64,000 bases of DNA, taken from Escherichia phage garuso. Below are positions 3,916-12,311 of this stretch, piece by piece. Under the pieces are notes generated by a model. That model saw only the letters and a list, made by a program, of their open reading frames with translations. It did no database searches and was not told the DNA's origin. Every line of letters starts with the position of its first letter. Position 1 is the first letter of the stretch. The stretch lies in the sequence record MN850566.1; one strand, given 5' to 3'. The position numbers were made by a program, and so were the translations under genes.

Positions 3916-4299
3916 TTAGATACCTGTGCAGCTTCTGTTTTCTAAGAAATACTCAACACCATACATAGCTTTTTGCATCAAATCTTCTTTAAACTGGATA
4001 CGATGGTTGAGCATAGCCTGTACATCAATATCATCATGGTGCTTCTCTTTAATATTTGCAGATTGCAGGAAATACTCTGCAAGAACGCGATACTGGTAGT
4101 CAGTTACCTTATCAGTCATCTCTGTCAAAGACTCTTCAGAGATTGGTTTAAGTAGCTCACCATTAGCTAGAGCAACACCTTTTACAATCTGGCAAGTATC
4201 CTCTGGAACACCTGATAAGTCCACATTTGGAAGTTCTGTTGCATTGACTGGTAAATTCATTGCCATAACCATTGCAGCAGCTAATAAAATCTTTTTCAT
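3916..4299 (-). CDS. hypothetical secreted protein
   Basis: 127 aa; signal-peptide-like N-terminus MKKILLAAAMVMAMNLPVNA. Confidence 0.5.
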   Translation of the reverse strand: MKKILLAAAMVMAMNLPVNATELPNVDLSGVPEDTCQIVKGVALANGELLKPISEESLTEMTDKVTDYQYRVLAEYFLQSANIKEKHHDDIDVQAMLNHRIQFKEDLMQKAMYGVEYFLENRSCTGI

Positions 4300-8278: not shown

Positions 8279-8469
8279 TACTCAATGTCAATAAGTTCTT
8301 GTGCAATGCTTTTCAGATTACCTTTCAAGAAAACCTTCTCAGAACCTGAAAGAGATGAATTGTCAATTAACCTGTTCATTCTCTCAAACAACTTCTGCTT
8401 ACGGTTCTTGATAGTTTCCTTTGAAGCGCCTTTCATCATCGCTGCATGGGTTCTTCCACGATGGCTCAT
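8260..8469 (-). CDS. hypothetical protein
   Basis: 69 aa basic ORF. Confidence 0.4.
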   Translation of the reverse strand: MSHRGRTHAAMMKGASKETIKNRKQKLFERMNRLIDNSSLSGSEKVFLKGNLKSIAQELIDIEYWRHQK

Positions 8470-8520
8470 AAGTCCTCCTATACAAGATATTGTATAAGGT
8501 ACTCTTCCCTGAGCACCTTG

Positions 8521-9072
8521 TCAACTTAGTTTTGCAAACTCTCCGTGGAGTTTAATAGCAGCTTCACAGTAAGCTTTATGGGCTTCTTCAGGGGTGTCAA
8601 ACATACCAAGATGATAGTTTTTACCTTGTAAACGTATCATTGCTCGAAACCTTTTACTTATCTTCTGTACACCTTTTGGCAACCCAGATGGGGACTCTCT
8701 TGACCGATTGCAAGAGTTTTGTGAAGCTGTACAAACCCTTAAATTCAAGTACCTATTGTCCCAACCGTCCCCATTCTTATGGTCAACCTGTAAGGTTTTA
8801 TCAGGTAGATATCCATCCATATACAAGACAACTAAACGATTTGCTTGGTAACCCCTTCCATCAATCAGCAACTGAACTGACTTGTGTCCATCAGTATTTG
8901 TTCTGTAGTTTCCAGCCCTCTTACCTCCAAATCTAGAGTTAGAGTTTGCATTACCTTCTCTAAACTTCCAAGTAAAGACCCCTGTTTCGGGGTCGTAGTC
9001 CAATAGCTCCTTAAGACGAATTTCTGTAATCATTTCAACACCATCAATGTACCTCATACCAGCTCTTACCAA
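8521..9072 (-). CDS. HNH homing-endonuclease-like protein
   Basis: 183 aa; HNH core VDHKNGDGWDNRYLNLRVCTASQN; N-terminal LDYDPETGVFTWK shared with ORF 18923-19447; overlaps 3' end of polymerase exon 2. Confidence 0.7.
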   Translation of the reverse strand: MVRAGMRYIDGVEMITEIRLKELLDYDPETGVFTWKFREGNANSNSRFGGKRAGNYRTNTDGHKSVQLLIDGRGYQANRLVVLYMDGYLPDKTLQVDHKNGDGWDNRYLNLRVCTASQNSCNRSRESPSGLPKGVQKISKRFRAMIRLQGKNYHLGMFDTPEEAHKAYCEAAIKLHGEFAKLS

Positions 9073-9604
9073 CCTTACCTGTGCCAGTTACAAGCGTCTC
9101 ACTCTTCAAACCTAAATTCTTAGATGCCTGACCATACATCCAGTCAGTTATGGCTTTAACTTCTTGAGTCATACTTTCTGGGCATTCCCAACTGTTTTCA
9201 TCGTGGTATGCCAGCAAAAGCCTAGCACCGATTGCTGGTTTTCGTCCATTTAATTTTGTCAATCCTTCTTCACATGCTCTTCTACAAGCAAGGTTAATTG
9301 CCTCGTTCTGAATCTGGCTTTCCGAACCCATGAGCAAATAATTCAATAACTTATGTGGAGATTTACACCACAACCATGCACCTGCTACCTTTACAAAACC
9401 CCCTTTAGAGATTGCAGCAGTCTTACCAAACACCTCTTCAAGTGCCTTTTTAGTTGCTTTGTAGTCAGCTTCCAAGTCATCTAGCAGCTTCTTAATTTTA
9501 GGCAAACGAATAAAGTAAGTCTGTTTAGTCAGCGCACCTTCCTGAGTAGTTGCAGCCTTAATCGTCTTAGCAAACTTCTCATCACCTGCACCGAACAATA
9601 CATC
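9044..9604 (-). CDS. DNA polymerase (family A), 3' exon
   Basis: Begins inside motif B (LFGAGDEKFAK, cf. T7 YGAGDEK) and contains motif C region LLAYHDE; 5' boundary approximate. Confidence 0.75.
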   Translation of the reverse strand, partial: DVLFGAGDEKFAKTIKAATTQEGALTKQTYFIRLPKIKKLLDDLEADYKATKKALEEVFGKTAAISKGGFVKVAGAWLWCKSPHKLLNYLLMGSESQIQNEAINLACRRACEEGLTKLNGRKPAIGARLLLAYHDENSWECPESMTQEVKAITDWMYGQASKNLGLKSETLVTGTGKVGKSWYEVH

Positions 9605-9915
9605 TGGTCAATACACTCGCAAGGTGTACCAGTTCTCTTATGAACTTCTCCGCATTTCTACGGAGTGTCGGACTATATCACGTAGTAATAATACTACCGT
9701 TGCACTTGGGAATGGTCATTAGCTTACCACCCTACTCTACTCAGTTCATACATTAAGTATGCTTTTCGATAGTCTCTGAACGTTTCTCTGTTAGGAATCT
9801 CTATAGTTATGTTATTTGCTTTAGGAGTCCTAACAGAGACTTCGCTGCTGATTACCATATCTTTACAGACTTAGGCTTCCAGCAATTCACAACGTTTTAC
9901 ATGCGCCACTGACGC
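9599..9915 (-). other. group I intron interrupting the DNA polymerase gene (no internal ORF)
   Basis: Minus strand carries R element GTTCAGAGACTA (plus 9770-9781) and S element GATATAGTCC (plus 9670-9679) in correct order; intervening sequence has stops in all frames; exact splice sites not resolved. Confidence 0.65.
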
Positions 9916-12054
9916 ATAGATACCATTCTTAGCCTTCTTACGTCCTTTGCTAATCTCATGAAGAAGATTCTCATCCTGAGTAGCTCGACAAGTCAAGATG
10001 TCCTGCTCATCATTCAAGTTAAAGTAAATACTATTCAGTGTATGTGCATCAGTCCCTGAATAGACAACGTACAGGTCATTCTCAGAGTCATAGTGAAGGT
10101 ACTTATCAATCTCTGGGTTGAGATACTCATCGAAGTGTTTGCAGTAATAGCGTCCATCTTCTTGACGAGTAAACTCAATCTCTTCTTTACCTTGCGTTAC
10201 CGCTTTGGTGAACTCTTTATCACCCATAAAGTTACAAAGGAGAACTAGCTGGGCTGAGTTCATATCAACGGAGACTACGTTGGTTCCCTCTTCGCAAATC
10301 CACACCTCCCTCATAGGCGCTCCATAGACAGCAGCACCAGACGGTACGTTTACAATACCATATTGTGTCATACGTCCAGTTGAAGTGCCAAACACCATTG
10401 CACCAGCACTAAGGCGACCATCAGGACGAATCTGGTTCAACCAACCTTTTTCATCATCCTTTGAGTTCTCAATAGTTCTGCGTCGGTGCATCAAAGTATA
10501 GTACTTAGCAATCTTCTGTCCAAGCTCACCTTCAATCGTATCATAAGATGATTCAGTAAGTTTTGGTGAAGTACGGATTAAGCAAGGTTCAAGCAAATCT
10601 GTGTATTTCTTCACAGACCAGTTATGCTCGATGTACTGTACACCTTCATGTTCAACATAACTCAAACCACACCGCTCAACCATTTCCTGCCACTTAGGAT
10701 GCTTTGTAATCATCTTTTTATTGTCTTTGAAACGACAAACTTTGATAGGGCGACCATCTGAGTCTTTCTTGTAATTCCAGTCATCTGGAATCCAACCAAC
10801 TGATTTCAAGTAGTCTTTAACAACTGCTACCTGAGTCATACGAGAAACTTCAAACTCAATTGGTGTATATGGTGCATCAATCAAACCTGTGTAGCGACTT
10901 GACTCAAGTTCAAAGTGATTGACAACGTGACTGTTATAGTACTTCACAGTCTTGACTGTTTTTACTGGTTTCCAGTCTTTGCATTTTTTGCCAATCTTTG
11001 CATTCAACTCGTTGCAGATTGCACGAGCATCCTTCATCGCTACAAAACCCTCTTTGTACTCTTCACCAGTTACAGAGTTGGTTGGTGTATAGCAATTCCT
11101 TTTTTCAATGTTAAAAATCTTTGTAGTTGGCTTACCAAATGGTTTGATTTCATAAGTCTGCATCTCACCATTACGTACCTGCTGACGATACTTTGTCTTA
11201 GGGTACTTGGTAATTCTCTTCAGTCCATCTGCATGACCAAATGTTTCAACATACTCATTCCAAGCTTTTGCAAACTCTTCTCCAGTCACTTTACCTTTGG
11301 TCTTAATAGTTGGAGGTAGATGTGGTTCAACCTCTGAAGCAAGCTCATTAGTCAACTTGTCAAGTTCCTTTACATGGAACTCCATAAGCTCCTTATCAGC
11401 TTTCCAACCATTGATAGCTTGCTGGCTCATCCAGAAAGATGTCTCTTTAGCTCGCATGTAAGTCTCATAAGTGTCTATACCACACTTCTTAAGCTTGAGA
11501 TACTCGTTATCAAGTGCCCGTTTAGTTTTGGCATTAATACGGATATCTTCTACAACACGAGTGAAGATTTCTGCATTCCACACACCCCAATGTTCAATCT
11601 CTGGTTTACGGACACCGACACGAGCACCCCATGCAGCCAAACCATGAGCACCTTTATAACCCTTTGGGGTTGGCCTATCCATCCACTGAACACGAGACTG
11701 GATAAGAGAATCCTGAAAGAAATTACTCCACGGCTTACATTTTGGATTATCAAAGTTCCATAAATCAGGCGCAATGTGATTGAAAACCCACCAGTCATAG
11801 CCGAGACCATTATGGATGCAAAGACGTTTTGCCTTTAACGCAAATTCAACACCTTCACGTAAGCCGCCCTTGATGTACTTAGTGTACTTGTGACCGAGGA
11901 TAGGTTCATCTGTAAAGACCCATACAGGTGGCTCTTCATCATCAGATTTATAGTCTGCGAAAGCCATTACGTGCACTTTAGTGAACTCAAGGAGTAAACC
12001 ATCAGTTTCTGTATCACCAACCAAATGTAAGTTTTTAAAATCTACGTTTTCCAT
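9916..12054 (-). CDS. DNA polymerase (family A), 5' exon with 3'-5' exonuclease domain
   Basis: Exo I motif DTETDGL; motif A region DMNSAQL; ends in motif B ...RKKAKNGIY; start set at Met with GAGGGAG SD (ORF track 9871-12084). Confidence 0.8.
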
Positions 12055-12109
12055 TTTTACTCCCTCTAAAATCATTAACCTCATACATTACTGCAAAAAA
12101 TTATAAAAA

Positions 12110-12145
12110 GCAAGTTGACAATGCACTTGACAAGGTGTTAATCTT
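12110..12145 (+). promoter_or_regulatory. candidate promoter with tandem TTGACA boxes
   Basis: AGTTGACAATGCACTTGACAAGGTGTTAATC; near-identical block at 57650-57680; divergent intergenic region. Confidence 0.35.
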
Positions 12146-12311
12146 TGCGAAGTGGGTTTTTACTTAAAAGGTTACTTAACAGTTTAACTATACAGATACT
12201 TTAAAACTCTTAAAAGATTATTTAATAGCTTTTAAAAAGCTTTAAAGTATAACGTATAGAATACGTTAAGATAAAAGATTAAAACTTAATAGTTACTTAA
12301 AAGAGGCTTAC

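Follow-up and report, generated by a model that had tools for sequence, protein, structure and literature searches.

A group I intron without an endonuclease gene splits motif B of the DNA polymerase gene in Escherichia phage garuso and is most likely a deletion derivative of a longer mobile intron

Group I introns in the family-A DNA polymerase genes of phages have been catalogued at sites equivalent to positions 674, 676 and 881 of E. coli Pol I (PMC3428280). The IA2 introns of SPO1, SP82, Bastille, Pf-WMP3, phiL7 and PhiI/W31 interrupt conserved polymerase regions and carry endonuclease genes in P6-type loops (PMC3428280), the enzymes being HNH endonucleases (I-HmuI, I-BasI, I-TslI, I-PfoP3I). 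Here we analyse a 64,000-nucleotide (nt) stretch of DNA from Escherichia phage garuso (MN850566.1), called the window throughout, in which the family-A polymerase gene is interrupted within motif B, at about position 764, by a group I intron that has no endonuclease open reading frame (ORF) and whose longer relatives encode an enzyme of the Endonuclease VII type instead of an HNH endonuclease. We consider it highly probable that this ORF-less intron is spliced out to give one polymerase and that it is a deletion derivative of a mobile intron of ~802 nt.

The closest described elements are found in the Felix-like phages JH2, EC6 and FSL SP-010, whose Endo VII-motif (DHHRN family) proteins have been listed as intron-encoded (Fang et al. 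2018, PMC6083498). Their intron occupies the same site with the same flanks and has a ribozyme core 97-99% identical to that of the window, but it holds a gene for a 160-amino-acid (aa) endonuclease in P6 and measures ~802 nt, whereas the window copy lacks this gene and is 311 nt long. In the literature on Felix O1-like phages we found no description of the intron structure, the splice sites or ORF-less forms, only that listing and a remark that phage SPJ41 (Felixounavirus) has 'two introns', location unstated (PMC9951933). The genome paper of Felix O1 reports no introns, and the polymerase of Felix O1 is uninterrupted, with 906 aa. A more distant parallel is provided by Yersinia phage Berlin, in which a family-A polymerase, annotated as a joined coding sequence (CDS), likewise has a group I intron in motif B (locus L036, 2317-2997). 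The Berlin intron contains an Endonuclease VII-type ORF that is 50% identical to the Felixounavirus one, and has the 14-mer GTTCATAAGAGAAC (P9.1) and the S element in common with the window intron. It differs in lying 11 nt upstream, in what we read as the T7 Phe524 codon (RDNAKTF^IYG), in a 5' half that is unalignable at the sequence level, and in belonging to another host phage family. Motif B appears to be a shared target of this Endonuclease VII-type family in two phage families. An intron of a single phage population, studied in 2000 (cited in PMC11878797), is said to occur at one site both in full-length ORF-bearing form and as shorter ORF-less derivatives; its gene, host and endonuclease family are reportedly all unlike those of the Felixounavirus case.

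The region from 8400 to 12200 of the window is 99.0% identical to Escherichia phage warpig (megablast) and 259 phage records match it, almost all from Felix O1-like myoviruses (Felixounavirus, Ounavirinae). On its minus strand, a polymerase ORF at 9871..12084 reads ...GRKKAKNGIY-ASVAHVKRCELLEA-stop, and the polymerase frame is picked up at 9598 by a second ORF (9044..9598) that opens (V)LFGAGDEKFAK. An earlier note on this DNA, made from the sequence alone, had put the read-through at 17 codons and the intervening sequence at about 320 nt; the actual values are 14 codons (ASVAHVKRCELLEA, before the UAA at 9873-9871) and 311 nt (9601-9911). Exon 1 encodes the exonuclease domain, motif A and the first half of motif B, down to ...RKKAKNGIYA and the first base of a Leu codon, while exon 2 supplies the remainder of motif B, motif C (YHDE) and the stop codon at 9044-9046. 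At the junctions, exon 1 ends ...ATC TAT GCG T (last base 9912), the intron runs from CAGTGG to CCAGATG (5' start CAGUGGCGCAUG, 3' end ...GACCAGAUG, omega-G at 9601), and exon 2 begins TA TTG TTC GGT (first base 9600). This placement satisfies the U(-1) rule as well as the omega-G rule and makes the junction codon Leu (T|TA). The predicted spliced messenger therefore reads ...AAT GGT ATC TAT GCG T|TA TTG TTC GGT..., with the RNA junction ...GGTATCTATGCGT^TATTGTTCGGTG... (also written ...AATGGTATCTATGCGT^TATTGTTCGGTGCAGG...) and the predicted junction-spanning peptide NGIYALLFGAGDEK.

These junctions can be read directly against intron-less alleles. Many relatives align to the window in two pieces (megablast), their span being shorter by exactly 311 nt. 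In the intron-less relative ekra a single 906-aa polymerase is encoded, with ...AAT GGT ATC TAT GCA CTG CTG TTC GGT... (NGIYALLFG) at this position; the spliced product is colinear with it and differs at 10 of 906 residues, none at the junction. We compared 35 loci from the window, GenBank and IMG/VR, 10 intron-bearing and 25 intron-less. All 25 intron-less alleles read KAKNGIYALLFGAGDE or a near variant (insertion-site sequence ...TATGCACTGCTGTTCGG...) and encode K(A/S)KNGIY(A/C)LLFG(A/G)GDE, and the 10 intron-bearing alleles share the identical flanks TATGCGT|...G|TATTGTT. Only the pair 9912|9911 and 9601|9600 was accepted, because any shift breaks the frame or disrupts IYALLFG; the 311-nt gap agrees with it. 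The earlier note had been unable to place the junctions because it expected a T7-like Gly after IY; Felixounavirus polymerases have IYALLFGAG, with Ala-Leu-Leu in place of the Gly, and both splice-site rules hold.

The interrupted gene is a recognizable family-A polymerase. The DNA_pol_A profile (Pfam PF00476; cut-off 34.3 bits) matches it with 57.2 bits, at 1.8e-15. Motifs A and C can be aligned with Taq polymerase, and the motif B region aligns to residues 517-620 of T7 DNA polymerase (HMMER). In the latter alignment the codon hit by the insertion is the equivalent of T7 Phe528, which we take, by the standard motif B correspondence, to be Leu764 of E. coli Pol I in the O-helix. With motif A in exon 1 but motif C in exon 2, neither half alone would be an active polymerase. 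Three in-frame ATG codons lie within 12054-12084, and only the one at 12054, the start that had been proposed from the sequence, has a strong Shine-Dalgarno sequence (GAGGGAG) upstream. GenBank relatives place the start at 12075, so that the product has 899-906 aa depending on the start chosen.

The insert is also a group I ribozyme by structure. The covariance-model search suggested in the earlier note gave a match to Rfam Intron_gpI (RF00028) over the full model (1-253) at 9648-9923 on the minus strand, with 63.3 bits against a gathering score of 50 and E=1.1e-13 computed over the whole 64-kb window; no other non-tRNA Rfam hit was obtained in the window. The match ends at P9, and the intron runs on through P9.1 and P9.2 to 9601. 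A sibling intron of 268 nt scores 64.9 bits with the same model. Among ORF-bearing relatives, BPS15Q2, Berlin and Jarilo gave no Rfam match at the gathering threshold; the insert in P6 presumably disrupts the fit to the model, and this negative carries no weight. The R and S elements lie exactly where they had been placed from the sequence; 11 of the 12 R positions agree with the Rfam consensus, as does nearly all of S. With short exon flanks included, the intron has a minimum-free-energy fold of -96.7 kcal/mol (z=-3.5), which yields P1, P3, P4, P5 (GUAA loop), P6/P6a, P7.1, P7.2, P8, P9 and P9.1. We placed P7, P10 and P9.2 by hand and then counted the structure on nine alleles. The 88 pairs of the resulting P1-P10 structure are 99.7% paired, compared with 28-47% when partners are slid. 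The core helices P3-P8 are 100% paired in all nine alleles, as are P7.1 and P7.2. P1, with a U.G wobble at the 5' splice site (U 9912), is invariant in 9/9 intron alleles, and its loop CAGUG (9911-9907) is able to pair with UAUUG of exon 2 (9600-9596) as P10. Compensatory changes occur in P6a (U-A/C-G) and P8 (C-G/U-A), four one-sided changes retain a standard pair, and 2 cells are unpaired. This count shows consistency and not strong covariation, and the main weight is carried by the covariance-model score. The Berlin intron was tried for deeper covariation and dropped, its 5' half being too diverged for alignment. P2 is absent, and P9.1 and P9.2 are extra helices. P7.1 and P7.2 are reportedly tied to subgroup IA, a point credited to Michel and Westhof in 1990. 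By these helices we assign the intron to the IA type (IA2-like) usual in phages.

From this arrangement a conventional splicing pathway can be proposed. The polymerase gene would be transcribed as a single pre-mRNA, in which the exon 1 tail AUGCGU would pair with the intron guide GCGCAU to form P1, setting the U.G wobble at the splice site. An exogenous G would attack after U 9912, P10 (CAGUG/UAUUG) would align exon 2, and the second splicing step would follow omega-G 9601, giving a spliced mRNA for one polymerase (899-906 aa) with an intact motif B. The intron is very probably splicing-competent, to judge from its sequence and fold. Thus the proposal of the earlier note, an ORF-less group I intron in motif B instead of an intein or a two-subunit polymerase, is supported by the Rfam match, the junctions, the stops and the fold. 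Coordinates are collected in Table 1.

Table 1. Features of the polymerase locus in the window
Feature	Position	Strand	Basis or remark
DNA polymerase exon 1	9912..12054	-	ORF list; colinear with the intron-less ekra polymerase
Group I intron, 311 nt, ORF-less	9601..9911	-	Rfam RF00028; 311-nt gap against intron-less relatives; hand-built structure
DNA polymerase exon 2	9044..9600	-	opens UA UUG UUC GGU (..LLFGAGDEK)
UAA stop, 14 codons into the intron, within P5	9871..9873	-	closes the read-through from exon 1
P1 helix	9900..9918	-	exon UAUGCGU (9918-9912) / internal guide GCGCAUG (9906-9900)
P6a stem, 12 bp, UCUCUGUUAGGA / UCCUAACAGAGA, and loop	9785..9839	-	site of the endonuclease gene in relatives; alignments
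Deletion scar GACTCCTAAAGCAAATAA, repeat hybrid	9812..9829	-	retains the last codons of the endonuclease ORF and its TAA stop; alignments
R element GUUCAGAGACUA (GTTCAGAGACTA), J6/7 and P7 5' strand	9770..9781	-	Rfam alignment, sequence
P7.1 (9761-9747) and P7.2 (9732-9708) hairpins, between P7 and P3'	9708..9761	-	folds
S element GAUAUAGUCC (GATATAGTCC), P7 3' strand	9670..9679	-	Rfam alignment, sequence
P9 (GAAA loop), P9.1 and P9.2 hairpins ahead of the 3' splice site	9605..9665	-	folds
Free-standing HNH_3 and AP2 endonuclease gene, directly 3' of the polymerase stop	8521..9057	-	Pfam; outside the intron

A search with the intron by itself recovered ~104 Felixounavirus records with the element at the same site, in three forms that, in alignment, differ solely in the P6 loop. 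The window's form, of 311 nt and without an ORF, is found in ~10 records that are at least 99% identical. A form of 780-805 nt (~802 nt), with a gene annotated 'endonuclease VII' inside, occurs in ~41 records, and a 268-nt form, also ORF-less and with a larger P6 deletion, in ~53. The ORF of the long form encodes 160 aa, lies in P6 and matches Pfam Endonuclease_7 at 1e-19. Two ORF subtypes with 79% amino-acid identity share one common insertion point. Imperfect direct repeats, GACTCCTAAAACAAAG and GACTACCTAAGCAAAT, flank the long-form ORF, and the window intron, shorter by 491 nt, has a hybrid of these repeats at the scar, which is identical to one ORF subtype. The codons retained there are native to the endonuclease gene, because its C-terminus is conserved in the homologues of Berlin and Jarilo, which are T7-like phages, the alignment reaching residue 159/160. 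Given this conservation, and since the long forms outnumber the 311-nt form, are more diverse and comprise two subtypes at a shared insertion point, we read the window copy as most likely derived by deletion from the ~802-nt mobile intron. A 491-nt deletion between the imperfect direct repeats would have taken out the endonuclease gene, sparing its last codons and stop. The 268-nt form is, by the same alignments, an independent and larger P6 deletion. In Escherichia phage VpaE1 (780-nt intron) the intron ORF has a 22-nt deletion and only its C-terminal half matches, so that it looks like a decaying homing endonuclease gene.

As for the window intron itself, it has stops in all three coding-strand frames, as the earlier note had stated, and we found no homing endonuclease gene in it. 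The only coding-strand ORF wholly within it is one of 44 aa at 9724-9858 (-), running from the P6 loop to P7.2; its annotation in warpig and EC106 as a hypothetical protein is almost certainly spurious. The window copy would thus be incapable of self-promoted homing, but it could spread by recombination or by means of the intron endonuclease of a co-infecting relative.

Some points weigh against this reading of the locus. Splicing is a prediction from the sequence. Most helices are invariant among nine close alleles, with covariation confined to two pairs changed on both sides. Deletion and insertion between direct repeats look alike, and the direction we propose is drawn, on an unrooted comparison, from diversity and C-terminus conservation; like mobilisation in trans, it is an inference. 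Finally, the window intron is a mosaic whose core is nearest to an EC6-type allele while its scar is of the BPS15Q2 type.

The symmetry just noted leaves room for the opposite history, in which the 311-nt ORF-less form is ancestral and gave rise to the ~802-nt form through entry of an Endonuclease VII-type gene into its P6 loop. Between the short repeats GACTCCTAAA... and GACTACCTAA..., a gain and a loss of sequence are formally equivalent, and endonuclease genes are thought to invade existing introns (PMC3428280, PMC6083498). We nevertheless hold this history to be unlikely. The 311-nt copy has the last codons and stop of the endonuclease gene, which are conserved in the homologues of unrelated phages; its scar is exact to one subtype although two subtypes use the same insertion point; the 311-nt copies are almost identical among themselves; and the independent 268-nt deletion together with the decaying VpaE1 ORF shows that loss continues.

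Whatever the direction of the P6 change, the intron has moved horizontally. Its cores are 96-99% identical between alleles whose exons are 76-85% identical. The window and ekra share backbone and neighbouring genes and have nine differences within 80 nt of the insertion site. Three of these are also polymorphic in intron-less alleles, and the other six (-31, -22, -2, -1, +2, +3) point to a conversion tract that spans a few tens of bases. The changes at -2, -1, +2 and +3 are present in every intron-bearing allele and are all synonymous; the upstream two (-2, -1) create the U.G wobble of P1 and the adjacent G-C pair. The identical 311-nt form also occurs in phage EC106, beside a diverged exon 2 and a different HNH family, so the ORF-less copy evidently still moves by recombination. 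Two intron-less loci from IMG/VR (L018 and L020, at ~3990-4005) have intron-type flanks, TATGCG TTG CTG and TATGCG TTA CTG, in place of GCA CTG CTG. Both carry the c-type HNH gene that goes with the 268-nt intron. Such flanks may have been left by a precise loss of the intron or by partial co-conversion.

Directly 3' of the polymerase lies a free-standing endonuclease gene, whose product matches HNH_3 (PF13392) at 3.5e-12 and AP2 at 6.8e-6, the latter below the curated cut-off. Its start may be the TTG at 9072, the ATG at 9057 or the ATG at 9033. The overlap with the end of exon 2 described in the earlier note exists with either of the first two and disappears with the third, which is the only one conserved in ekra. 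Across relatives, this post-polymerase slot holds five unrelated HNH-AP2 allele families with 39-74% mutual identity and is empty in many phages. The families found beside an intron are W, b and c, the three with the best sampling, and each is also found beside intron-less polymerases. A polymorphic patch in the last ~130 nt of the polymerase gene (e.g. W-M-Y vs W-Y-Y) tracks the presence of the HNH gene, which suggests that the HNH target and its co-conversion tract lie at the polymerase 3' end. Free-standing endonucleases usually cut beside their own insertion point.

It had been suggested, with some reserve, that this HNH gene might promote homing of the intron in trans. The adjacent gene is indeed there. 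Among the matches listed, all 35 GenBank rows with an ORF-less intron (27 of 268 nt, 8 of 311 nt) have an insert of ~0.5 kb after the polymerase, annotated as HNH in every annotated record, compared with only ~12 of the ~38 listed rows with an ORF-bearing intron. This census was made from BLAST spans over the listed rows, with ~28 further ORF-less records lying outside them, and carries no phylogenetic correction. Clonal sampling (the REP, phiWec and SUT series) confounds the association, which goes back to about two deletion events. We therefore regard it as weak evidence, yet it leaves a looser cooperative model alive, in which ORF-less introns persist only beside a downstream HNH gene that took over from the lost Endonuclease VII-type gene. 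Under that model the HNH enzyme might cut nearby and drag the intron along by co-conversion. We rate it a long shot; if true, it would represent a natural hand-over between two families of homing endonucleases and a looser kind of collaborative homing.

Collaborative homing in the strict sense would have the HNH-AP2 endonuclease cut intron-less polymerase genes at or near the insertion site, while the intron would protect its own genome and be copied into the break, its mobility thus being driven by the HNH gene. In favour of this, 557 nt separate the HNH gene from the insertion site, the HNH families W, b and c all have ORF-less introns for neighbours, and the layout resembles that of F-CphI and the psbA intron of cyanophage S-PM2 (PMC6083498), where an ORF-less group I intron likewise adjoins a free-standing endonuclease gene. 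F-CphI, however, is an Endo VII-motif enzyme, as was the endonuclease lost by the window intron, and falls outside the family of the intron's HNH neighbour. In phage T3, a free-standing endonuclease gene downstream of the polymerase gene, in a similar layout, is said to have been described by Bonocora and Shub in 2009. In the window, too, the free-standing endonuclease gene adjoins the interrupted gene, but self-protection by the intron or by a changed site is not found. Family W, with alleles at least 90% identical to that of the window, also stands beside intron-less polymerases in ekra and two further loci (L006 and L009), c does so in four loci and b in four. Ekra has the window's HNH allele (99%) and no intron, and its insertion site is identical from -80 to +43 to that of L011, which lacks an HNH gene. 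With its site unchanged, ekra would therefore cut itself were the insertion site the HNH target. The protection relationship of F-CphI and S-PM2 is thus absent here, the window's HNH allele being found beside intron-less alleles with an unchanged site. The polymorphisms that do track the HNH gene sit at the polymerase 3' end, by its own insertion point. Moreover, backbone and HNH gene are common to the window and ekra, and the intron with its very short conversion tract is all that sets the two apart, so intron gain or loss was independent of the HNH gene. In relatives, besides, the intron has an Endonuclease VII-type homing endonuclease gene of its own. On these comparisons, strict collaborative homing by the HNH enzyme is unlikely.

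The intron might no longer splice, the polymerase then consisting of two separately translated polypeptides. GenBank records do annotate two DNA polymerase CDSs (e.g. 'DNA polymerase subunit' in phage Mushroom), and the exon 2 ORF does open with a TTG codon, but such a fractured gene is very improbable: the break lies in the middle of the O-helix, exon 2 has no Shine-Dalgarno sequence upstream, the ribozyme core is invariant or compensated across alleles, synonymous codon choice in the exon flanks preserves the P1 and P10 pairing, and the isolates are viable and lytic with a polymerase that is essential. An intein is rejected by the stop 14 codons into the insert and by stops in all three frames. 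A two-subunit polymerase is rejected on these same stops, on the absence of any ribosome-binding site ahead of exon 2 and on the break in mid-helix.

An ORF-less group I intron in a phage polymerase gene is ordinary biology, and the window offers a cleanly documented case of a classical phage element; what is known of group I introns is unchanged by it. The practical consequence concerns annotation. In many Felixounavirus records the polymerase appears as two genes, in some together with the spurious 44-codon ORF. The exact junctions permit a single joined CDS to be written, averting errors in pangenomes and phylogenies of a genus that is used in Salmonella typing and biocontrol. The site also presents a dense natural series: some alleles are empty, others have an intron whose endonuclease gene is whole or decaying, and two deletions have independently produced ORF-less introns. 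The adjoining slot is occupied by free-standing HNH genes of five families. Series and slot together lend themselves well to work on how homing elements are gained, are lost and interact.

A few further observations were made in passing. In SPJ41, one intron is the 268-nt polymerase intron described here, and a second intron may exist elsewhere in Felixounavirus. In some members of this genus nrdD is split by an endonuclease gene (PMC4837284). Two GenBank records labelled Campylobacter phage A132 and A126 (MG065664 and MG065668) contain a polymerase region of Felixounavirus type that includes the 268-nt intron and is 96% identical to coliphage L27; mislabelling or contamination is likely. Lastly, the window contains 17 tRNA genes above the Rfam threshold, clustered at 59843-63380 (+), as is typical of Felix O1-like phages.

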